Shown here: positions 271-35,615 of the stretch, one piece after another
Position numbering within the stretch: the first letter of the stretch is position 1
How the letters are laid out: the number at the start of each line of letters is the position of its first letter
Assembly: GCA_024239035.1 (NCBI GenBank)
Contig: JANBVK010000001.1
Coordinates: 423,062-487,061 of the forward strand
Length of the DNA stretch: 64,000 bases
Origin: Patescibacteria group bacterium
GTDB taxonomy: Bacteria; Patescibacteriota; Minisyncoccia; UBA6257; GWB1-50-10
Direction: 5' to 3'
Made by a program: the position numbers and the translations under genes
The notes under the pieces: model-generated
What the model was told of the DNA's origin: nothing
The model's input: only the letters and a program-made list of their open reading frames with translations
Databases searched by the model: none

Positions 271-1748
271 CGTAAATCTACTATATTCCCTTCAATAGTT
301 GCCTGCCCCGAGTTACGTCGAGGGAGTTGACCTTTTTTGATGTTACCCTCTTTTTTACCCAGAGGGGATTGTGATGCTTGCGGTTTCTTCTCTATTTGTG
401 TCTTTAATGCTGGTTTCTTTTTTTCTCTTAGTGGTAGAATTTTTTCTGAGGGTTGTGGTGTATTGTTTCGCTCGAGCGTCTCAAGATTAATTACCTCCTT
501 CTCAGGCTTACCAAAAGGGGAAAGCGGCGTTCGACTCTCGCTGTAATGCACCACCCTTTTCTTTTCTTTTTCTTCTTTCACCCGCCGTAGCCTTGGCGAA
601 GGCGGGGCGTCTAACTTCGCTTCCGCGCCGGGTACTTCAATTTTTACCTTAGTGGGCGACGTACCCGGAGTTTTTGGTTTCATAAAACTAAAAGGAAAGT
701 CAAAACCCTTAAATGGTTTCTTATCTTCTTCAACCATTGGTTTTTCTTCGTGAAGGACTAGGGGTTTACCCTGAGTAACATCGAAGGGTTTACCCTCTTC
801 TGTTTTCTGCGTTAATACGCTTCTATGTTCTTCGGTGGGTCCGCGTCTTTCCTCTTCTACTTTTTCTATTCTAATCTTCTGTTCTTTTAACCCTTCTTCG
901 CCGAATTTTTTCAGAGAGATTGTTTTTTCCCCAACAGTTGCTTCTTTAAGTGGTCCTGTAATGGGATCATATACTTTCCTGATGCCATTTCTTAATTGGG
1001 AAAATATCTTTTTACTCAACTCTTGACCAATAGTTGTCGCAATTCGACTATCAATATTTACTGCTTCTTGTATTTCTTTAGTGATATCATCAAGATGAAT
1101 AAAACCCATTAGGACTCGACTGCTGATCATTGCTATTGAACTAATTTTTTCTTCAGAGAAATGATTAGAACTCCCAATTCTAAAAATGTCTTCCGCGTTG
1201 GCGTAAGAGAAAATCTCATTCTTTAAATTCTGAGGCAGCGATTTATATCGTTGATTTACTTGTTTTGGGGGTAGTGCTCCAATAAGTTTAGTTAGACCGA
1301 CGCCTAATTCTTGAGCGAGATTAGCAATTAGAAAAGTATAAAGGGGGGGTCTCTTGGTTTTTAGCCAATTTAATTTTGCTTCTTCGGTTTCTCCTGGTAT
1401 TGCTTCTATAATCAACTTCTGGAACTCTTTTTGGGCTTCTGGATATAAATCAAGGTTTTTATAGATGTTAGCTAAAGCCTCTCCGCTTGCCGTCTCCAGA
1501 ACAGCTTGAGCAATAGTTGGGAGAACGTTGTTTCTCCACTCTTTCTCGCTCAAATTCGCTCGGAGCATCGGAAATCCTTTAATAATACCCACCCAGAAAG
1601 TATTCTCCCACTCTGCCGCCGGAATCGTTTTTAAAGAAGTCCTAAGACCCTCTCCAGCCTTTTGGTAGTTTTTGCTCTGGAGTTCATCCCAAATATCTTC
1701 TTTGAGAATCGGAAGCCAATAAAAGTTTTGAGTATTTATATTGGGCAT
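267..1748 (-). CDS. hypothetical cytoplasmic protein with a K/E/P-rich disordered C-terminus, in the T4SS-like operon
   Basis: 493-aa ORF. No transmembrane segment or signal peptide is visible. The C-terminal half is low-complexity and rich in Lys, Glu and Pro. It sits in a tightly packed minus-strand operon with the VirB6-like and PrgI-like genes. Confidence 0.45.
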   Translation of the reverse strand: MPNINTQNFYWLPILKEDIWDELQSKNYQKAGEGLRTSLKTIPAAEWENTFWVGIIKGFPMLRANLSEKEWRNNVLPTIAQAVLETASGEALANIYKNLDLYPEAQKEFQKLIIEAIPGETEEAKLNWLKTKRPPLYTFLIANLAQELGVGLTKLIGALPPKQVNQRYKSLPQNLKNEIFSYANAEDIFRIGSSNHFSEEKISSIAMISSRVLMGFIHLDDITKEIQEAVNIDSRIATTIGQELSKKIFSQLRNGIRKVYDPITGPLKEATVGEKTISLKKFGEEGLKEQKIRIEKVEEERRGPTEEHRSVLTQKTEEGKPFDVTQGKPLVLHEEKPMVEEDKKPFKGFDFPFSFMKPKTPGTSPTKVKIEVPGAEAKLDAPPSPRLRRVKEEKEKKRVVHYSESRTPLSPFGKPEKEVINLETLERNNTPQPSEKILPLREKKKPALKTQIEKKPQASQSPLGKKEGNIKKGQLPRRNSGQATIEGNIVDLR

Positions 1749-1758
1749 GATTTAGAAT

Positions 1759-3525
1759 TTATGGAGTTCCTCCTCCGCCTGTTCCGCCACCAGCCTGAGC
1801 TTGACGCCGGGCCTCTTCCGCAATCATTTCTTCAACTTGGGCGCCAAGTCCTGCGTCTGATCTCGTTTCTGGATAAGTTTCTCGCATTATTCCAGGTTCT
1901 CTAAAAGGTATTCTTGGGCCATAAGGCGTTCCAGTTTCCCCTCCCCGACCATAGAGAAAACTAAGACGAACTTCTTTTGTTAAAGCGTCCTGAGGTATTG
2001 AGCTTAAAGCCTCAATAGCAGCCTGTCTTACTTGAGCGTTATCACTCCTTGCGTGGAGGCTGAGAGATGCTACAATTTCTACTTTTTCAGGATTTGAGGC
2101 TGTAGTAAACCTTCTCGCATTTTCTTCGATTGACCTACCTCTTACCTCTTTTCTAGCTTGAGCCGTTAATGCTTCTCCAGCTAACCTCGCTTCGCTTAGT
2201 CCCCTTCCAACCTGTCTTAAAGGAGCAGTTAGGAAACGACCAGCTCTCCCGAATACTCTTCTTCCAAGGCCCCCAGTTTGACCTAGGTTTGCTCCAACCC
2301 CTTGTAATCCTGCTGTTAATTTTCTTCCCGTAACACCCCTCAAGGGGTACGTACCAGTCTGTAACGCTTTCCTCCCAGCCCACGCTCTAGTCCCCTTACC
2401 AGCTCTTGAAGCAATACCCATCGCTCCGGCCGAGCCTTTTATACTCATCTGGGTCGCTATCCAAAGCCCGCCAATTAGGATGCCAGCTAACGTTATCATT
2501 TGTGCTCCTTGAACCATAATGTTTTGAAGAGAACCTGAAAAAAACTCTCCTCCCCGAATGCCACCCTGCTCTTTACCTAACTTACCTAATTCCTCAACGC
2601 TTACGAGAGCAAGGTAAGTGAAGAACATGACTGCTGGCGCGAAGAATACCCATTCCATGAATTTACTCCACCATTTTGTGAATTGTCCAGCTAAGTTGGG
2701 AATGACCCAGAAAAGCCATACGATTGGAGATACGATTATAAGAAAAGTTAAGTAGAGATACCGTAACAAAAGCATAAAAGCAAAGGCGAGCAAGACGAAA
2801 GCCGCGATGAGAGTAAAGACAACAGTGAATATAAGACCTGTTATTGAGATAAGTACTGCGGTTCCAATTCCCCCTGTGAGCCCGCCTACTTCTTCTTCCG
2901 GATTTGGTGGAATAGGATCATCGCTCTCAATTAAAAACCGTTGAGGTCCGAATGCACTTGATAGGCTGCTGCTTAGATCTAACCCTAAAGCTCCCCCACC
3001 GGAGGTGACCCTCTCTGCGAAAACATTTGTTAGGACGTGGGAAAAATTAATGAAAACGCCGGCAATTGCGAAACTGAAGTTAACTAGAATAGCGGCAGCA
3101 ATGAGCTTAGGGAGAAGCGCTTTTACCCCATACTGCTCTCTTCGCAGTATGGTTGCAAAAGCTATTACGATAATGAAGAGTACGAAGCCGAGATTGGCAA
3201 TATCGCGGACAATCCTCCATCCAATATGAACAAGAGCATTACTATCATCTAACACCGTAAGATTGAGGCCGAGCATCAAGTTTACAAGGAAACCACTAAG
3301 TACAAAGAGTACTCCCCCAATAAAGTTTAGGAGGAACGCGGTGATTCTGAAGCCGAAGGCGAAGAAATCTGCTACGAGCGTATCACCAATCCCAGCTTGT
3401 GACACCTCAGGTACTAGAAAAAAACCAATTAATAAAAGCAATACAGCTCCTAGAAAGAATTTACTATTAAAGAATCTTGTGACTTGTTTGTTTTTAAGAT
3501 GCATCATGGAGATTGAGAAGGGCAA
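1759..3525 (-). CDS. TrbL/VirB6-like polytopic membrane protein with a Gly/Arg-rich C-terminal tail
   Basis: 588 aa. At least six hydrophobic helices are visible. The C-terminus is a long Gly/Ala/Arg-rich repeat region ending in GGGTGGGGTP. This architecture is typical of TrbL/VirB6 conjugation channel proteins. It is operonic with the PrgI-like gene. Confidence 0.5.
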   Translation of the reverse strand: MPFSISMMHLKNKQVTRFFNSKFFLGAVLLLLIGFFLVPEVSQAGIGDTLVADFFAFGFRITAFLLNFIGGVLFVLSGFLVNLMLGLNLTVLDDSNALVHIGWRIVRDIANLGFVLFIIVIAFATILRREQYGVKALLPKLIAAAILVNFSFAIAGVFINFSHVLTNVFAERVTSGGGALGLDLSSSLSSAFGPQRFLIESDDPIPPNPEEEVGGLTGGIGTAVLISITGLIFTVVFTLIAAFVLLAFAFMLLLRYLYLTFLIIVSPIVWLFWVIPNLAGQFTKWWSKFMEWVFFAPAVMFFTYLALVSVEELGKLGKEQGGIRGGEFFSGSLQNIMVQGAQMITLAGILIGGLWIATQMSIKGSAGAMGIASRAGKGTRAWAGRKALQTGTYPLRGVTGRKLTAGLQGVGANLGQTGGLGRRVFGRAGRFLTAPLRQVGRGLSEARLAGEALTAQARKEVRGRSIEENARRFTTASNPEKVEIVASLSLHARSDNAQVRQAAIEALSSIPQDALTKEVRLSFLYGRGGETGTPYGPRIPFREPGIMRETYPETRSDAGLGAQVEEMIAEEARRQAQAGGGTGGGGTP

Positions 3526-5946: not shown

Positions 5947-6660
5947 ATGATTGAAACTAAAATGATAGCCAAAATTACTAAATCACCGTACGGGATTATT
6001 TCCCTTTCTATTGTTTTTATTTTAATAAGTGTTGTTCCATTCTTCTTCTTTTTAGGAGATGACAGCAACTGGAGAGAAAACCTATGGAATGCTTTTCCAA
6101 TTACGCTCTTGGCTGTCTTTGGTATGCTTTTTCTTCCGCTCTTTACGATACGTTACGTGTTTAAAGAAAATCCTAAGCGATTTGGGTGGGGTATTCCGGA
6201 AAATATGAAAAAAGCAGCATCTCTTACCGCGTTGGGGATTCTAATTTTTTTACCGATAATATTTTTTTTCAGTAGTCGGGAATCATTCCAAAATTACTAC
6301 TTAGTGGGGGAATTTTCGCTTGGGCAGTTTTTGCTTGTAGGGGTCTTAGCGTCACTTGTGTATTACACCGCCGAAGAGTTTCTTTTTCGCGGTTTTTTAT
6401 TTTGGGGTTTGTGGCATAAGGTTAAATATCATAGTTTTTGGATAACTAGTTTAATATTTACTTTTTTCCATTTAACCAAACCACCCTTAGAAGTTATTTT
6501 CGCCTTTTTTCTAAGCTTGGTTCTTTCTTACCTTTCTTTAAAAACAAAATCATTCATTCCTGCCGTCGCAGTTCACTTTGCAATAGCGCTAGTTTTAAAT
6601 GTTTTGATAATATTTTTTTCGGGCGCCGGCATTTCACCTGGAGGTACTATCCGTTTTTAG
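5947..6660 (+). CDS. CPBP-family (CAAX/Abi) intramembrane metalloprotease
   Basis: Polytopic membrane protein. It carries the three CPBP motifs in order: EEFLFRG, FTFFHL and HFAIALVLN. Confidence 0.7.
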   Translation: MIETKMIAKITKSPYGIISLSIVFILISVVPFFFFLGDDSNWRENLWNAFPITLLAVFGMLFLPLFTIRYVFKENPKRFGWGIPENMKKAASLTALGILIFLPIIFFFSSRESFQNYYLVGEFSLGQFLLVGVLASLVYYTAEEFLFRGFLFWGLWHKVKYHSFWITSLIFTFFHLTKPPLEVIFAFFLSLVLSYLSLKTKSFIPAVAVHFAIALVLNVLIIFFSGAGISPGGTIRF

Positions 6661-11448: not shown

Positions 11449-11539
11449 CAAACGGCTCAACGACACCCACCGTTGAGCCGTTTGGATATTAAGACGGGTC
11501 TGACGCCTCAATTTCCTCTATATGGAGGAAATTGAGGCG
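11449..11539 (-). terminator. two tandem strong hairpins downstream of the phosphohexomutase gene
   Basis: First hairpin: ccaaacggctcaacg / cgttgagccgtttgg (15-bp stem). On the minus strand it is followed by a T-run. Second hairpin: cgcctcaatttcctc / gaggaaattgaggcg (15-bp stem). Confidence 0.5.
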
Positions 11540-25974: not shown

Positions 25975-26349
25975 TTGTTCACGACTAGTTATATGTCTAT
26001 TACGTCTATTAAAAAAATCGCTTTGTTTCTACCATTAATTATAATGGTAGCCCTACCTTTAGTAGGATTTGCCCAACCAGCAGAAGCTCCCATAACGGAT
26101 ATTGCAGGAGTTGAGAGCTTGCTAAACAGGATTCTTAACATTGTTTTCGTCATCTTCTTTATTATTGCCGTACTCTTTATTATTTTAGCTGCGTTCGGTT
26201 ATTTAACCGCTGGCGGGGATGATGAAAAGATAAAATCAGCAAAACAAAAGTTAATCTATGCAATTGTGGCTATTGTGGTTGCGCTCTTGGCTACGGGAAT
26301 AGATAATATTGTAGAAGGTATTTTGGAGGGAGGAGAACTTACCCGATAA
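25975..26349 (+). CDS. T4SS pilin-like protein, paralog 3
   Basis: Signal peptide ..VGFA|QP. Two hydrophobic helices (IVFVIFFIIAVLFIILAAFGYLTAGG ... LIYAIVAIVVALLATG). Same architecture as the two upstream paralogs. Confidence 0.5.
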   Translation: MFTTSYMSITSIKKIALFLPLIIMVALPLVGFAQPAEAPITDIAGVESLLNRILNIVFVIFFIIAVLFIILAAFGYLTAGGDDEKIKSAKQKLIYAIVAIVVALLATGIDNIVEGILEGGELTR

Positions 26350-26373
26350 GAGAGTTAGGAATTAATACTTAAA

Positions 26374-26408
26374 ACCCGCCAAGCATTCTGCTTGGCGGGT
26401 TTTGGTTT
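26374..26408 (+). terminator. rho-independent terminator of the pilin-like gene triplet
   Basis: Hairpin acccgccaagc-attc-tgcttggcgggt followed by a T-run (TTTGGTTT). Confidence 0.7.
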
Positions 26409-26429
26409 ACAAGGAAGATACGGCTCCCG

Positions 26430-26468
26430 AGAAATAAAACACCCCGCAAGACATTCGCCTTGCGGGGC
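26430..26468 (-). terminator. rho-independent terminator of the SPFH/NfeD-like operon
   Basis: Hairpin ccccgcaag / cttgcgggg. On the minus strand it is followed by a T-rich tract. Confidence 0.6.
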
Positions 26469-26474
26469 TTACTA

Positions 26475-27335
26475 CTAACTACCTTTTGGTAAAGCTGATA
26501 TGGTCACCGAAGTGGTTACCCCGCTTTTTGAGTGGATATCCACAGCGAATCCGGGAATTACATCCACAGCGCTCTCGCCGTCGCGGACAAGTTCCCCGTT
26601 GATATACGCTTCCCCATCAGGCGCTATATCAAACACCCTACCATCGAGAAGACGCATTTCGATGGTATCGTCGGGTATGGTTTGCAACCAGTGGCGGAAA
26701 GGGATAGCTACCCTAACCCACACACTGTCAACCTCAATCGTCTGGGGGGTTGATGTAGCAGAAACCGTTCTCGCTGTCGCTGGTTGTGCTGCTGCTGGCT
26801 GTGCGTCGCCGCTGAACCACCCTTTCCACTTCTCAAACCACCCTTCAGTATTTACTCCGCTCACCATAAGAATGACGATTAGACTGAAGGCGAGGCCTGC
26901 TGATCCTTTTCCTACAGTCCCGGCATCGATTGGTATGCCGGTTGGTTTGAACAATGTTACAATGACCGCAGGTAGGGGGACAAGGAAAAGGGATACGGTT
27001 GAAAGAATAACCGCAGCGGCCAATTTCGATACCCCCATAAAATCAGCTAACCTTCCAAGGTTGGTGTAGCCGAGCCACCCTAGATACAAGTAGAAGCCAA
27101 GCAGCAGGATGAAGATAGCTAGCCCGCTTACTAACTTGTTTTCGAGGAAACTCTTGAGCCTTTCTGCTGGTAGTTTCCATGCTGCTATCCCAATAGCGAT
27201 AGCAACTGCCACTGGTAACCAGAAGAATGATAGGATTGTAAAGAGCGGCTTGAAAACCAACCATAGGAGTCCGACGAGGATGCCGGCCGCCGGTATAGCT
27301 AAGAGCCAACGTCGGCCTTTAGTGACATGAGTCAC
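26475..27335 (-). CDS. polytopic membrane protein with a C-terminal soluble beta-rich domain (possible NfeD-like partner of the SPFH protein)
   Basis: Five hydrophobic helices followed by a soluble domain of about 130 aa. It sits immediately downstream of the SPFH gene in the same operon, the usual SPFH-NfeD arrangement. GC content is higher than the neighbouring sequence. Confidence 0.3.
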   Translation of the reverse strand: MTHVTKGRRWLLAIPAAGILVGLLWLVFKPLFTILSFFWLPVAVAIAIGIAAWKLPAERLKSFLENKLVSGLAIFILLLGFYLYLGWLGYTNLGRLADFMGVSKLAAAVILSTVSLFLVPLPAVIVTLFKPTGIPIDAGTVGKGSAGLAFSLIVILMVSGVNTEGWFEKWKGWFSGDAQPAAAQPATARTVSATSTPQTIEVDSVWVRVAIPFRHWLQTIPDDTIEMRLLDGRVFDIAPDGEAYINGELVRDGESAVDVIPGFAVDIHSKSGVTTSVTISALPKGS

Positions 27336-27343
27336 GATTCACC

Positions 27344-28330
27344 TCACTTTCGTTCCAGAAGTTCTTGGAGTTTGCCCAGGAAGCTTTCAGCTTCGCTTGG
27401 TGCGGCCGTACTTTCTGCCTCTTTCCTCTCTTGCCGTCGGGTTTCCAACCGCTCTCGGTTGATGTCCCGAAGCGTTGTCGCCACTGTTGAAACCGACTGG
27501 GCAATAGCCGCTGGCATGTTTCCGCGAAGCGGTTCTGACACCGCTTGCGCTACCGAGCCAGCCTCGTGAGCTTTAGCGTCAGCCAGTTCCCTAATACGGG
27601 AAGCTTCGGACTGAACCATCTCATTGTAGTCGTAGACGTCAATGCCGACGACTTCGTAACCGCTGTGGAACTCCATAGGCTCACCAGGAGCGATTTCCAC
27701 TAGCACTGGTTTTTTGAGCTTTTCGTTGGTTTTTCTCTGTACCTCCTGTGCTACATCATCTTCTGATTCGAGGAGTTGTTTAAATGTCCTTTTGCCCAGT
27801 TCAGCCCTCAATGAGGCAAAAGTTGTTGACTCAATGTCTGCCCTTGATTCGGGTGTGTTGAGCCCACCGTAAGAGCGCAGAGCGTGATAGGGGACAGTGA
27901 GACGGAAGAACACCCTCATAAAGACCTCGATGGCTATCTTCCTATCCCCATCAATGTAGTAGAGTTTTTGCTTTTCGTTCTCTTCGTTGTCGTGCAGACG
28001 TTGCCGTGCAGTGGTTTCGTGCTCAATAGAGTGAAATGGCCAGAAAGTAAGCCACCAGCCCTTCTTGAGTTTACGGATGGCTCTTCCGAAGAGGAAGAGG
28101 ATGGCTACTTCCGGCTCCCTGACGATGTAGAGAGCGATGAGGAAATAGAGAAAGGCGAGAGAGATGAAGATGAGCGCCTGAGGTCCTTTGCCGAAAAAGG
28201 CAAGGATGAGACCGAGGAATAGGATTGAGAGAAAAACAACCCAACCAATCCACAGCGGACCTTCGGGTAGGTCTTCTTCGGGCGAGGATGGGGACTGAGG
28301 AACGAGGTTCTTTAGGAATTCCCAGTTCAT
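27344..28330 (-). CDS. SPFH/band 7 (stomatin/prohibitin-like) membrane protein
   Basis: N-terminal transmembrane helices, then an SPFH core (EPEVAILFLFGRAIRKLKKGWWLTFWPF) and a long C-terminal coiled-coil Ala/Glu-rich tail. Confidence 0.55.
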   Translation of the reverse strand: MNWEFLKNLVPQSPSSPEEDLPEGPLWIGWVVFLSILFLGLILAFFGKGPQALIFISLAFLYFLIALYIVREPEVAILFLFGRAIRKLKKGWWLTFWPFHSIEHETTARQRLHDNEENEKQKLYYIDGDRKIAIEVFMRVFFRLTVPYHALRSYGGLNTPESRADIESTTFASLRAELGKRTFKQLLESEDDVAQEVQRKTNEKLKKPVLVEIAPGEPMEFHSGYEVVGIDVYDYNEMVQSEASRIRELADAKAHEAGSVAQAVSEPLRGNMPAAIAQSVSTVATTLRDINRERLETRRQERKEAESTAAPSEAESFLGKLQELLERK

Positions 28331-28392
28331 ATTGTGCTCCTACCCATAGGGCGTATAGTGTCAGTGATATTCAAATGCCAAATTTCTATTTT

Positions 28393-28427
28393 ATAATATA
28401 TCATAGAGTATATAGTTTGTCAAATTA
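28393..28427 (-). promoter_or_regulatory. promoter cassette copy 1 (TTGACA-17-TATATT on the minus strand) driving the SPFH operon
   Basis: 35-bp block ATAATATATCATAGAGTATATAGTTTGTCAAATTA. The same block recurs at 28806 and 29531. Read on the minus strand it is TTGACA, a 17-nt spacer, then TATATT. Confidence 0.65.
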
Positions 28428-28446
28428 CAGTTTTTAGTAACAGTTT

Positions 28447-28487
28447 ATGAAAAAAGTAACACCATCAGTTTATGCTGATGGTGTTAC
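28447..28487 (-). terminator. terminator of the Cys-rich miniprotein gene
   Basis: Hairpin gtaacaccatcag / ctgatggtgttac flanked by A/T runs. On the minus strand it is followed by TTTTTT. Confidence 0.6.
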
Positions 28488-28519
28488 ATTAAAAAAAACG
28501 CGTATGCGGTGTAAAGCAT

Positions 28520-28744
28520 TTAAACCCAACCGCTTCCGCCGCACGCGCTGCACCGTCCATTGCCACCGCAACCACTACACTTTCCACCGCCTCGGCAATG
28601 CTGACAAGTCTCCTTCGGCATCCAAGGCTTGTGGATATTACCTTCCCCCCTGCAGTTTATGCAGATGCCTTTTCCATAACACTTGAAGCATTTTCCTTTT
28701 CCTCCTCTGCACAATTGGCACTCTTTTTTTTCGTGCTGAGACAT
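28520..28744 (-). CDS. 74-aa cysteine-rich miniprotein with six DnaJ-type CxxCxGxG zinc-finger repeats
   Basis: Sequence MSQHEKKECQLCRGGKGKCFKCYGKGICINCRGEGN...CQHCRGGGKCSGCGGNGRCSACGGSG, giving six CxxC(x)G(x)G units. It has its own copy of the promoter cassette and its own terminator. Confidence 0.6.
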   Translation of the reverse strand: MSQHEKKECQLCRGGKGKCFKCYGKGICINCRGEGNIHKPWMPKETCQHCRGGGKCSGCGGNGRCSACGGSGWV

Positions 28745-28805
28745 GATTGTCCTCTCTGCTTATAGGGCTCGTGTTTTCAGAACTTGGAACTTAAGTTTCT
28801 AATTC

Positions 28806-28840
28806 ATAATATATCATAGAGCATATAGTTTGTCAAATTA
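28806..28840 (-). promoter_or_regulatory. promoter cassette copy 2 (one mismatch) driving the Cys-rich miniprotein gene
   Basis: Sequence ATAATATATCATAGAGCATATAGTTTGTCAAATTA. Confidence 0.65.
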
Positions 28841-28970
28841 AAGCTTCTTTGTCTTTGAAAAGAGAAACGCCACCAATAAGAAAAAGCCCCTACGATTTAT
28901 TTGTCGCAAGGGCCTGATTCCTCTATGTGCCCACCAAAAGGTGGGTAATAGAAATCCAGTGCTAGGGTTA

Positions 28971-29468
28971 CTACTCGCTGGAGATGGCGATACGGTCGCT
29001 CCGGAAGAGATATGCGTTATTGTACCCATTCTCCAAAAGGTACCAGCGGCATTTCCAGTATCCACCCATCTGAGGGAGGCTTAAGCCGAGCCGTCCATAG
29101 TCATGGTTGGAATCTACCACAACTATACCTGGGAAAAGAATAGAAATACTACCGCGGAGCGCTACTAATTCAGGGAATTCGTTTTGATGTTCTACGAGCC
29201 AGGCAGCGTGCTGATAACCAAGTAGGAAATCTAGCTTCGGTGCGATGCGGCACTCATACTCAAATGGGTTGATATAATCCTCATCGTCCCGCAGAATAGT
29301 GCCTAGTCGGAATGTAACCTCCCCCGTTGGAGAACTATCCCGCTCAATCCTCTTAATTGAGGAACGATCCATTCGGACGTTCTCTAGGGTTGGCCGCCGA
29401 AGACCTGGGATCTGTAACGTGAGTTCATCAGCTAGGATGATAGCCTCAGCAGTTGGCTGTTGTGACAT
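28971..29468 (-). CDS. hypothetical protein (165 aa) under promoter cassette copy 3
   Basis: ORF with an upstream GGAGG Shine-Dalgarno sequence. No recognisable motifs. GC-richer than neighbouring genes. Confidence 0.45.
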   Translation of the reverse strand: MSQQPTAEAIILADELTLQIPGLRRPTLENVRMDRSSIKRIERDSSPTGEVTFRLGTILRDDEDYINPFEYECRIAPKLDFLLGYQHAAWLVEHQNEFPELVALRGSISILFPGIVVVDSNHDYGRLGLSLPQMGGYWKCRWYLLENGYNNAYLFRSDRIAISSE

Positions 29469-29530
29469 GTTCTCTCCTCCTTATGTCAAGTATTGTTAGT
29501 TACCCATCTTCAACTGTAAGTTTCTGGTTC

Positions 29531-29583
29531 ATAATATATCATAGAGTATATAGTTTGTCAAATTAAGGTTTAGGTTATATAAT
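29531..29583. promoter_or_regulatory. promoter cassette copy 3; bidirectional
   Basis: On the minus strand TTGACA-17-TATATT serves the 165-aa gene. On the plus strand TTGTCA, a 17-nt spacer, then TATAAT (29555..29583) sits about 40 nt upstream of tRNA-Leu. The shared TTTGTCAAA core is a near-palindrome used as the -35 element in both directions. Confidence 0.55.
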
Positions 29584-29621: not shown

Positions 29622-29703
29622 GCCGAAGTGGCGGAATTGGCAGACGCGCCAGGTTTAGGACCTGGTGGGGAAACCCGTGAGAGTTCGAGTCTCTCCTTCG
29701 GCA
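29622..29703 (+). tRNA. tRNA-Leu(TAG), type II with a long variable arm
   Basis: Acceptor stem gccgaag/cttcggc. Anticodon stem ccagg/cctgg with loop ttTAGga. T-arm gagag-ttcgagt-ctctc. CCA is not encoded. Confidence 0.8.
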
Positions 29704-29704
29704 C

Positions 29705-29897
29705 ACCTGAAATTTTAGATGCCTTTTGTGGTATCTAAAATTTTATCTGAAGGTAGGGAATCGAACACGAAGGGGGGTCGGGGGAAAGTTTGAGGTTCCC
29801 CCGTGTTGGAAATTATTCAAAACCGAGGGTTGTGAAAGCGCACCGAGCACATAAAGCCTTATGTGCTCGGGAGCAGTGAGATTCTCTCCTTCGGCAC
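29705..29897 (+). repeat. tRNA-trailer element copy A
   Basis: Order: AT-rich hairpin (29710..29743), conserved core (29752..29838), GC hairpin (29843..29870), then a 15-nt duplicate of the tRNA-Leu 3' end (29883..29897). The core is about 80 percent identical to the 63596..63683 core on the opposite strand downstream of tRNA-Ser. Confidence 0.6.
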
Positions 29898-29902
29898 TAA
29901 CT

Positions 29903-29938
29903 TGAACGGCTCAACGACATTCCTCGTTGAGCCGTTCG
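29903..29938. repeat. palindromic hairpin sharing its stem sequence with the 11449..11487 hairpin
   Basis: Sequence gaacggctcaacga-cattcct-tcgttgagccgttc. The 12-nt stem core aacggctcaacg is identical to the stem at 11452. Confidence 0.5.
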
Positions 29939-29981
29939 ATAATATTGACAAAGTTCCTGATAGGACATACTTTGAGAAATA

Positions 29982-30464
29982 ATGAACCTGCTTTTTAATA
30001 GTTCTTTTGGATTAAAACTCGATGTCGCCCAGGTGGTTCGGGAAGTCGTGCGTTTCATGAAGGCTGATCCGAAAAGACAGTACAAAATTATTATTGGCAC
30101 GGACTCAGAACGGTTAGCCAGTAAAGACGCCGATTTCGTGACGGCGGTAGTGGTTCATCGTTTAGGAAACGGCGGCAGGTATTTTTGGCGGCGAATTAAA
30201 TTAGGAAAGTTTCATACAATCCGCGACCGGATTATCAAAGAAGTTATGCTTTCTCTCGAGACGGCACATCTCGTATTAGCGGAGCTAAAAAAAGACCCCC
30301 TCTCTGATAACTGGGGTTTTGAAATCCACGCTGATATTGGCGAGAACGGTGAGACTAAGGTACTTATCCAGGAAGTGGTAGGTATGATCAGGGCAAATAA
30401 TTTTGAGGTAAAGACTAAGCCCGATAGTTACGCCGCGACCAAGGTGGCAGACAGGCATGTATGA
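29982..30464 (+). CDS. RNase H-like fold protein (YkuK/DUF458-like)
   Basis: 160 aa with KIIIGTDSER..FVTAVVVHR. This resembles the DUF458 RNase H-like family from memory. The stop overlaps the next start (ATGA). Confidence 0.35.
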   Translation: MNLLFNSSFGLKLDVAQVVREVVRFMKADPKRQYKIIIGTDSERLASKDADFVTAVVVHRLGNGGRYFWRRIKLGKFHTIRDRIIKEVMLSLETAHLVLAELKKDPLSDNWGFEIHADIGENGETKVLIQEVVGMIRANNFEVKTKPDSYAATKVADRHV

Positions 30465-33992: not shown

Positions 33993-34064
33993 CGGGCATG
34001 TAGCTCAATGGCAGAGCGCCAAGCTTATACCTTGGTGGTTCCTGGTTCGAATCCAGGCATGCCC
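33993..34064 (+). tRNA. tRNA-Ile(TAT) (anticodon UAU, an AUA decoder)
   Basis: Acceptor stem gggcatg/catgccc. D-arm gctc-aatggca-gagc. Anticodon stem ccaag/cttgg with loop ctTATac. T-arm cctgg-ttcgaat-ccagg. Confidence 0.65.
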
Positions 34065-34084
34065 ACCCTAATAAAATAATTAGA

Positions 34085-34301: not shown

Positions 34302-35195
34302 TTATTTTCTTCTGCGAGCGTGAAACGCTTCGTGTATGTCCCGGAGGTCTTTATTGGTGAGATGGGTGTAAACTTGAGTAGTTGAGATGTTCGCGTGGCC
34401 TAGAAGTTCCTGCACCGAGCGAAGGTCGGCACCGTTTATAAGGAGATCGGTTGCGAATGAATGGCGAAGCTGGTGAACATGCACCTTTTTGGGAATACCG
34501 GCTTGTCGTCCTCGAAGGTCTACTGCTCTTTGCACTGCCCGTGGTGTAATGCGGTCGAGCGCACCACCACTTCTTGAGAGACTTATAAATAATGCTTCAT
34601 TAGCATCTTCTCGTTTGTCTAAATATTTCTTGAGCGCTCGCTTTGTACCAACGGATAAAAAAACAACCCTTAACTTGTCTCCCTTACCGCGTACGGAAAT
34701 TTCCCCGCGACTCATATCTATTTTACGGTTTAAACTACAGAGTTCTGAGAGACGAAGACCGGTTGAAAATAAAGTTTCTAAAATTGCTCTGTCGCGAAGT
34801 GAACGTAGATCATTGCCCTTTGGAGCTTGGAGCAATCGCTCAAGCTCGTTGTAATCCAACGTTTCGATGTCCCTCCTCACAACTTTTGGAAGCTCAATAG
34901 TTTCAGGCGGTAATACCTTAATACCGCGTTTCACAAGATATTTTAAGAAGTTTCTGAGAGCAATTACGTAGTAACTTTGAGTGATTTTTTTAAGTTTACC
35001 CCGGCCGAGCAATATGCGGAAATCTCGAATCACTTCTTGAGTGATTTCTTTAGGAGAACGAATGTGGGATTTTTCTATAAATACACGAAGATATTGTTCG
35101 TAATTCTCCCGTGTTTTTGGGGAGCGGTTTTTTTCAATTTCTAGGTAATCAAGATAATCTTTTAATAATTTTTCTATTTCAGACATTAATTTCAT
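34302..35195 (-). CDS. tyrosine recombinase XerC/XerD family
   Basis: The C-terminal catalytic region HQLRHSFATDLLINGADLRSVQELLGHANISTTQVYTHL carries the R..HxxR..Y residues. The probable start is MKLMSEIEKLL (35195) rather than the 35399 extension. It lies 40 bp from the tRNA-Val 3' end. Confidence 0.8.
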   Translation of the reverse strand: MKLMSEIEKLLKDYLDYLEIEKNRSPKTRENYEQYLRVFIEKSHIRSPKEITQEVIRDFRILLGRGKLKKITQSYYVIALRNFLKYLVKRGIKVLPPETIELPKVVRRDIETLDYNELERLLQAPKGNDLRSLRDRAILETLFSTGLRLSELCSLNRKIDMSRGEISVRGKGDKLRVVFLSVGTKRALKKYLDKREDANEALFISLSRSGGALDRITPRAVQRAVDLRGRQAGIPKKVHVHQLRHSFATDLLINGADLRSVQELLGHANISTTQVYTHLTNKDLRDIHEAFHARRRK

Positions 35196-35348
35196 TATAT
35201 CAGAAGTGTCGTAAAAGGAGGATTGTTGCGTCAAAAATTCTTTTGACGCAAAATCCCGCGGAGATCTTACAACGCCTTGAAAAATGCCATAAAATCTCCA
35301 TCTTTGACATTTTTTCGCTTTTATAGTAGCCTTGTATTTAACATCTAA

Positions 35349-35615
35349 ATGCTCTCTAAAAGAAAGAAACAGTTTGCTATTAAGGAATACCAAAAACATA
35401 AGACTGATACGGGATCCGCGGAAGTACAGGTTGGGCTTTTGACGAAGCGGATTAAAGAATTAGCGGATCATCTAAAAAAGCACCCGAAAGATCACCATTC
35501 TCGACGGGGACTTTTGATAATGGTGGGTAAACGTAGAAAGTTTTTACAATACCTTCGTCGGGAAAATGAAAAAGTTTACGATAAACTGGCGAAGAAACTA
35601 AAATTAGAGGTTTAA
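35349..35615 (+). CDS. rpsO: 30S ribosomal protein S15
   Basis: 88 aa. [48 protein letters not shown] matches S15. Confidence 0.85.

Follow-up and report, generated by a model that had tools for sequence, protein, structure and literature searches.

Three near-identical predicted promoters beside tRNA-Leu in a Patescibacteria genome: old paralogues whose cores were probably homogenised by local recombination

Results and Discussion

Three copies of one predicted promoter

The stretch of DNA analysed here (the window) comprises 64,000 nucleotides of contig JANBVK010000001.1 from a metagenome-assembled Patescibacteria genome and corresponds to 443187-507186 of a 729-kb scaffold (ENA ERZ23499938, ZHAO22-1_SAMN11268109 scaffold_1). 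The element under study is a 35-nt block (ATAATATATCATAGAGTATATAGTTTGTCAAATTA) that occurs three times within 1.2 kb, next to a gene for tRNA-Leu. Comparison with related genomes supported the view that the blocks are copies of one predicted, housekeeping-type sigma70-like promoter with an extended -10 element. They are probably old paralogous promoters whose cores were recently homogenised by local recombination, with the ancestral copy at tRNA-Leu. The triplet is a fresh example of known bacterial promoter reuse and not a new type of element, and it leaves the existing concepts unchanged.

A sequence-only reading of this DNA had reported three copies, the second with one mismatch, and this was confirmed: the 35-mer is exact at 28393-28427 and 29531-29565, and at 28806-28840 it differs by a single T to C change at 28822. 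None of 100 dinucleotide-preserving shuffles of the sequence contained a match, even with up to three mismatches allowed. The 35-mer proposed earlier is therefore real, but the repeat is longer, at about 55 nt; pairwise alignments covered 54 nt at 88.9%, 55 nt at 92.7% and 67 nt at 85.1% identity, with partly conserved flanks running from roughly -47 to +12. The direct repeats are spaced 413 and 725 bp apart. Within the window the next-best match to the 35-mer had 13 mismatches, so there is no graded family of this sequence, and a profile search returned the three copies only. The wider search for further copies proposed in the same reading was run over about 83 kb of the scaffold (the window plus approximately 19 kb of flanking DNA) and yielded none there. 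Exact and degenerate scans for the block were likewise empty in GTDB species genomes, JGI metagenomes and viral contigs, which are collections without the source genome, and the 1.3-kb region had no blastn match among phage records. An independent Logan assembly of run SRR8799001 (contig L002), whose contig breaks within both exact copies, was 100% identical to the window over 29560..28398, which rules out an assembly artefact and shows that the repeats were not created by scaffolding.

Read on the minus strand, each block contains TTGACA, a 17-nt spacer and TGnTATATT (11/12 in a consensus scan), the complete layout being TAATTTGACA, the spacer, TGATATATT and then ATrAAnnAGAAAyTT. In all three copies the -35 hexamer matches TTGACA at 6/6 positions, the spacer is 17 nt long and a TG stands one base 5' of the -10 hexamer, itself a 5/6 match to TATAAT. 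The combination of a perfect TTGACA, a 17-nt spacer, TG and a 5/6 -10 was found only at these sites in the 64 kb, and the consensus scan gave no stronger candidate promoter in these intergenic regions. Each copy lies downstream of the preceding unit's terminator, and the genes form three separate units: a 165-aa gene, a 74-aa Cys-rich gene, and an SPFH gene with a 286-aa partner (Table 1). Every unit is built on the same plan: a promoter, a leader of roughly 57 nt ending in a start region with a Shine-Dalgarno sequence, and a coding sequence closed by a terminator. The distance to the start codon, earlier put at 50-60 nt, had to be corrected to 61-62 nt from the 35-mer and 63-64 nt from the -10 hexamer, and a GGAG-type Shine-Dalgarno sequence precedes each ATG. 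As predicted from these elements, the three units likely receive equal, unregulated and probably strong initiation signals, and promoters matched in this way would give co-expression by default. A riboswitch or RNA thermometer in the leaders was ruled out, as they showed no consensus fold and no significant structure (z +0.9 to +1.4, less stable than shuffled sequences); Rfam, searched at gathering thresholds and at E-values up to 1, returned only tRNAs and chance matches.

Table 1. Positions in the window of the predicted promoters, the genes that they would serve and the associated terminators.
Feature	Position	Strand	Details
Promoter copy 1	28379..28433	-	-35 28423..28418; -10 28400..28395; predicted start near 28387; would drive the SPFH operon
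Promoter copy 2	28792..28846	-	-35 28836..28831; -10 28813..28808; spacer mismatch 28822; predicted start near 28800; would drive the Cys-rich 74-aa gene
Promoter copy 3	29517..29571	-	-35 TTGACA 29561..29556; -10 TATATT 29538..29533; TG; 17-nt spacer; predicted start near A 29525; would drive the 165-aa gene
Candidate tRNA-Leu promoter, TTGTCA-17-TATAAT	29555..29583	+	consensus scan 11/12
tRNA-Leu, anticodon TAG	29622..29704	+
165-aa gene	28971..29468	-	homologue of a diversity-generating retroelement (DGR) variable target protein
Hairpin resembling an intrinsic terminator, after the 165-aa gene	28884..28915	-
Terminator 3'-half remnant (TTGGTGGCGTTTCTCTTTTC...) upstream of copy 2	28851..28877	-	z 4.5
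Cys-rich 74-aa gene	28520..28744	-	CxxCxGxG repeats, like the DnaJ zinc-finger and anti-TRAP domains
Terminator after the Cys-rich gene	28456..28487	-	13-bp stem, then T run
SPFH/Band_7 protein, 328 aa	27344..28330	-	two database relatives only
286-aa membrane partner, second gene of the SPFH operon	26475..27335	-
Terminator closing the SPFH operon	26441..26468	-

Conservation of the promoter elements in relatives

Related loci (designated by L numbers) were collected by a scan with the neighbouring RNaseH-like gene, which gave 80 loci, six of them with tRNA-Leu(TAG) upstream of that gene. When seven promoters drawn from five genomes were aligned, TTGACAAA at -35, the T and G of the TG, the TAT of the -10 and a few adjacent positions were invariant, and the spacer varied. 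In the promoters from the window, L015, L012 and L016, a Y-A-G was also present 7-8 nt past the -10. As the invariant columns lie at or next to the elements read by sigma70, they provide the strongest evidence at hand for reading the blocks as promoters, and together with the consensus scan and the terminator-bounded units with their Shine-Dalgarno sequences they uphold the sigma70 reading made earlier. Consensus matches by themselves do not prove function, and it was conceivable that the block was a non-functional repeat, for instance one left over from a miniature mobile element or an AT-rich duplication that arose by chance, with the real promoters elsewhere. This was considered highly improbable, given that the promoter elements are conserved at orthologous positions in four other genomes, that the scan offered no stronger candidate, that the spacing to three start codons is constant with a terminator before each copy, and that the repeat has no terminal inverted repeats, no transposase and three copies only.

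The layout agrees with extended -10 (TGn) promoters of the sigma70/sigmaA type in its perfect -35, 17-nt spacer, TG, 5/6 -10 and purine start 7-8 nt downstream; the resemblance is one of sequence and of comparative conservation. To our knowledge there is almost no experimental information on promoters in Patescibacteria (candidate phyla radiation), and a literature search on transcription start sites in this group found nothing relevant. The comparison provides a comparatively validated promoter architecture for Patescibacteria, consisting of TTGACAAA, a 17-nt spacer and TGnTAT and paired with a tRNA promoter, and the 35-55 nt cassette is a candidate strong, portable promoter for genetics in these bacteria.

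Other promoters with short leaders were observed in the same material. The RNaseH-like gene (PF04308) has TTGACA-17-TACTTT upstream at 29945-29984 on the plus strand, with its ATG just 8 nt past the -10, and this arrangement recurs in L011 (4134), L012 (727) and L015 (7963), which suggests that its mRNA is leaderless. One relative, L080, carries a promoter doublet of its own (TTTTATTTGACAAGCCCrTCCGCCGGGCTTATTTT, at 3321-3355 and 6487-6521, 34/35 identical) before two unrelated, non-homologous genes. The ATG follows 8-9 nt past the -10 in this doublet, and the mRNAs appear to be leaderless.

Back-to-back pairing with the tRNA-Leu promoter

The earlier proposal that copy 3 forms part of a bidirectional promoter shared with tRNA-Leu was borne out. 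The -35 of the plus-strand candidate promoter overlaps that of copy 3 by 5 bp (29556-29560), the palindromic -35 common to both being TTTGTCAAA, and its -10 ends 38 nt before the 5' end of the tRNA. The same arrangement was found in three further genomes: in L015, L012 and L011, TTGTCA-17-TATAAT precedes tRNA-Leu(TAG) with its -35 overlapping a divergent TTGACA by 5 bp, and the divergent promoter has the form TTGACA-16/17-TAnnnY. A similar pair (TTGTCA-17-TACAAT) was seen by eye in L016, farther upstream. The presence of the back-to-back pair in four genomes (the window, L015, L012 and L011) indicates that the arrangement is ancestral and that copy 3 is the orthologue of its counterparts; on this comparison copy 3, which adjoins tRNA-Leu, is the ancestral copy.

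Bidirectional promoters described by Warman et al. (bioRxiv 10.1101/2020.01.31.928960) have overlapping -10 elements and starts 7-25 bp apart, mostly 18. The pair at copy 3 resembles them in that symmetry of the core elements lets a short piece of DNA serve divergent transcription, but it falls outside that class, since it is the -35 hexamers that overlap (29555-29561) and the divergent predicted starts lie about 66 bp apart. As a consequence of this overlap, RNA polymerases would compete at the -35 and not at the -10. At copy 1 only, a plus-strand TTCAAA-16-TATAAT (28370-28397) overlaps the minus-strand -10; this element may provide a divergent start, with overlapping -10 elements, directed antisense into the Cys-rich gene.

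As a separate observation on the tRNA gene, the last 23 nt of tRNA-Leu (29682-29704) recur with 20/23 identity at 29875-29897, 193 nt downstream. The similarity is confined to the 3' end, and the duplicate resembles a scar left by an old integration event at that end of the tRNA.

Origin of the identical cores

Within the source genome the cores agree at 33-34 of 35 positions, compared with 25-27/35 between the cores here and those of L015 and L011, and 22/35 between L015's own two promoters at the locus. The leaders gave another pattern, with approximately 54-61% identity within the source genome (z 2.2-4.2) and comparable divergence from their L015 counterparts (z 3.8-4.3). Since the leaders are as diverged inside this genome as they are from L015, whereas the cores are near-identical, the regulatory regions are old and the cores young, and since the spacers of the relatives vary, identity of the core is not required by function. 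We infer from these patterns that local recombination between the direct repeats is the simplest cause of the core identity. The sequence-only reading had offered recent duplication or strong co-regulation as explanations and had described the 5' untranslated regions as different. Recent duplication or recombination is the part that survived. The leaders proved to be weakly homologous, equal in length and old, so that only the 35-55 nt core is recently shared; the core is not a mobile element.

A dedicated factor binding the spacer or flanks, so that each block would be promoter plus operator and the three units would be co-regulated, for example as a membrane- or protein-stress regulon, was also weighed. 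Such an operator would account for a 17-nt spacer kept in full in two copies and at 16/17 positions in the third, and for conserved flanks (about -47 to +12) close to the footprint of RNA polymerase or of polymerase plus a factor; the L015 and L011 spacers share 15/17 positions, and the SPFH and zinc-ribbon products are plausibly stress-related. However, a symmetry search for dyads and direct repeats found only weak AT-rich palindromes, the spacer shows no conservation among the five genomes, L015's own promoters differ, no transcription-factor gene is adjacent, no further copy was present in the 83 kb, and the location of all copies within 1.2 kb fits local duplication rather than a dispersed regulon. 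An operator was therefore judged unlikely, and the small regulon suggested earlier was unsupported in the form of one with a regulator of its own.

It was also possible that an entire cassette, reaching from the terminator half through promoter and leader into the first codons, had been duplicated, after which the leaders diverged fast and the core was kept by purifying selection, without gene conversion. The equal 63-64 nt of the leaders, their weak but significant similarity (z ~4), the homology reaching upstream of copies 1 and 2, and a conservation that tapers gradually with no sharp edge would all be expected from such an event. Against this, the divergence of the leaders is about that seen with L015 and implies a duplication as old as the L015 split, during which time the orthologous cores fell to 25-27/35 and the spacers were free among relatives. 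As spacers vary freely in relatives, generic promoter selection cannot fix 17 spacer bases in three copies, and this explanation was regarded as quite unlikely.

Under the favoured explanation, homogenisation by local recombination, the 35-55 nt cores would have been made identical recently in this lineage by gene conversion or by unequal crossover between the direct repeats. An unequal crossover between the promoter adjoining tRNA-Leu and the SPFH promoter would have duplicated the Cys unit, and the body of one Cys copy would then have been replaced by a 5'-truncated foreign gene; a single event probably both gave the mosaic middle copy and joined the foreign gene to the front part of the Cys-rich copy, its leader and first codons. 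Several features are in keeping with these steps. Copy 2 is a mosaic, its upstream flank being like that of copy 1 and its near-downstream flank like that of copy 3 (ATGAA..AGAAACTTA), and the terminator remnant upstream of it is homologous to the terminator before the SPFH promoter here, in L015 and in L011. The 165-aa protein begins with MSQQP, the Cys protein here with MSQH and the L015 Cys protein with MRQQP, the last from a Shine-Dalgarno-supported ATG. Relatives have promoters at positions equivalent to the copies here, and the cores may have been overwritten in place rather than moved. The earlier reading had asked whether relatives carry the same cassette before orthologous genes; promoters do stand at the orthologous positions, with varying spacers and with the diverged cores described above.

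Several points weigh against this explanation. Promoter activity, start sites and strength are all predictions from sequence, and recombination was read from patterns of identity and not observed. About 83 of the 729 kb were searched, so that dispersed copies may exist elsewhere on the scaffold. The MSQQP match spans five codons and was spotted post hoc. Furthermore, in L015 the promoter of the Cys gene close to the tRNA agrees with the L011 SPFH promoter at 31/35 positions, with 15/17 in the spacer, which suggests that some constraint on the spacer is possible in this promoter family.

The blocks were also considered as recombination sites flanking mobile cassettes, with promoter activity incidental, either Xer/dif-like (an 11-6-11 imperfect palindrome, ATATCATAGAG-TATATA-GTTTGTCAAAT) or att-like. 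An imperfect palindrome centred on TATATA is indeed present, the direct repeats flank single-gene units, gene content beside tRNA-Leu varies among relatives, a tyrosine recombinase gene lies 5 kb away and the tRNA-Leu 3'-end duplicate is nearby; the 28-mer also resembles the Bacillus subtilis dif site, at 20/28 positions. Nevertheless, this was thought very improbable. The locus lies about 37 kb from dnaA-dnaN with positive GC skew on both sides, and is thus not at the terminus; the positions conserved in relatives are promoter elements and not dif arms; the promoters flanking the L015 Cys-rich gene are not repeats of each other; the recombinase sits beside other tRNAs in a separate low-GC patch; and the arms are just 71% complementary. 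Acinetobacter plasmids carry dif modules, and other elements integrate at dif via Xer recombinases. The blocks share with the Acinetobacter modules the short direct repeats around single-gene units, but are located off the terminus, lack conservation of Xer arms and have promoter elements as their conserved positions.

Further classes of element were tried and rejected. A miniature or insertion sequence-derived mobile repeat did not fit, as there are no terminal inverted repeats, no dispersed copies in the 83 kb covered, no adjacent transposase and no match in the phage, viral, genome and metagenome collections. Integron cassettes have attC hairpin sites, depend on an integron integrase and are mostly promoterless; the block contains no hairpin-forming attC-like site, each unit has its own promoter and no integron integrase was seen. 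A phage origin of the sequence was rejected as well, given the empty searches of viral contigs and phage records.

Relation to known forms of promoter reuse

Putative mobile promoters and promoter propagation were described by Matus-Garcia, Nijveen and van Passel (2012; PMC3488235) for sequences of at least 50 nt with at least 80% identity, located in the -150 to -50 window of non-homologous genes. The copies here align over 54-67 nt at 85.1-92.7% and the block occupies the region 62-116 nt ahead of the start codons, the coding sequences are non-homologous, and the upstream neighbours of the copies are the Cys-rich gene, the 165-aa gene and tRNA-Leu. The triplet thus falls within that paper's operational definition of a putative mobile promoter family, and the L080 doublet is a second example. 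The two cases are alike in the small size of the family, the variation near the translation start and the proposed duplication by recombination. They differ in that the copies here are tandem units within 1.2 kb, one of them ancestral, and in that the host is represented by an uncultivated Patescibacteria genome. The old leaders present a further difference, pointing to homogenised paralogous promoters and not to the transfer of a promoter to another gene.

Duplicated tuf genes and rRNA operons are examples of concerted evolution by gene conversion. As in those cases, paralogues within the genome are closer to each other than orthologues are between genomes; here, however, the converted tract would be a non-coding promoter core of 35-55 nt. 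The locus is a clear natural case of promoter cores younger than the leaders around them, and as such it is evidence that recombination drives the reuse of promoters in a tiny genome poor in regulators.

Products of the three units

From the identity of the promoters, expression at matched levels is predicted for an SPFH membrane-scaffold operon, a zinc-ribbon miniprotein and a protein like a DGR target. No homology was detected among the products: when the SPFH, 286-aa, Cys-rich and 165-aa proteins were all compared with one another by BLASTP, the best E-value was 0.65. Neither PADLOC, which looks for defence systems, nor NCBIfam produced a significant hit for these four proteins.

The 165-aa protein has four homologues of 204-225 aa, giving a five-member family. 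All four carry an extra N-terminal segment of about 40-60 residues before the conserved ELTLQIP motif, which is absent in the 165-aa protein. The L006 homologue is a DGR target, as established by a 136-nt variable/template pair (2351-2486 and 2783-2918) in which 19 of 21 mismatches fall at template adenines, with Avd and reverse transcriptase genes adjacent. No such parts (reverse transcriptase, Avd or template repeat) were found in the 64-kb window. An AlphaFold model of the 165-aa protein, built from the 5-sequence alignment, had a mean pLDDT of 51, too low for a fold search.

The Cys-rich open reading frame (ORF) is unannotated in the source genome and absent from a word-indexed protein database, and its homologues were found by exhaustive search. 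Stand-alone homologues keep every aligned Cys and end in the same C-terminal GxGWV motif, from which it was concluded that the 74-aa ORF encodes a real zinc-ribbon miniprotein of the DnaJ-CR/anti-TRAP type.

The SPFH protein has a 53% identical orthologue in L007, where the N-terminal half of the 286-aa partner also has a counterpart, being 58% identical to a 369-aa partner protein; a search of GTDB genomes with the SPFH alignment returned no relatives. The GC content of the SPFH operon is 0.50-0.52 (26300-28100) compared with about 0.43 in the surroundings, and the SPFH-type operons at the equivalent position in L011 and L015 show no BLAST-detectable homology to the one here, which suggests non-orthologous replacement.

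A variable gene slot beside tRNA-Leu

The content between tRNA-Leu and the SPFH-type operon differs from genome to genome. The slot is occupied by the 165-aa and Cys-rich genes in the source genome, by a homologue of the Cys-rich gene (49% identity, at the same position by tRNA-Leu) in L015, and by a gene for a 100-aa protein with weak Ig-like matches in L011. It is empty in L007, where the SPFH orthologue adjoins tRNA-Leu, and possibly also in L016, where a 303-aa ORF without a Pfam match was found. In L040 the slot contains an ORF, identified by eye from its HYH motif, for an IS200/RAYT-like Y1 transposase (324-1013, minus strand), flanked by several palindromes (TATCGAGGTTAAACCTCGATA) resembling repetitive extragenic palindromic (REP) sequences.

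A terminator-promoter module (CTGGTGGCGT...CTTTT, then TTTGACAAA) precedes the SPFH-type operon here, in L015 and in L011. It is tentatively suggested, as a possibility that we hold to be on the doubtful side, that in one Patescibacteria clade the tRNA-Leu promoter pair and this module form a fixed expression slot, in which recombination between the modules repeatedly exchanges the gene, expands the array and wires captured genes to expression. If true, even 5'-truncated foreign genes would gain a ready-made promoter, leader and start codon, providing regulator-poor genomes with a simple, integrase-free means of gene capture.

Other features of the window

The genes dnaA and dnaN lie approximately 8-10 kb before window position 1 (L089 19470-21482). 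The window therefore adjoins the replication origin, which fits the positive GC skew over most of its length. The tyrosine recombinase gene (34302-35399, minus strand) directly follows tRNA-Ile and tRNA-Val in a patch with a GC content of 0.37, compared with about 0.43 for the window, and this patch may be the edge of an integrated element. The tRNA-Ile (33994-34067, plus strand) has the anticodon TAT and is also present in several of the related loci; a tRNA-Ile of this kind reads AUA directly and is uncommon in bacteria. Finally, a terminator-like hairpin (AACGGCTCAACG...CGTTGAGCCGTT) occurs twice in the window, at 11451-11482 and 29905-29936, the two copies being 88% identical and 18 kb apart.

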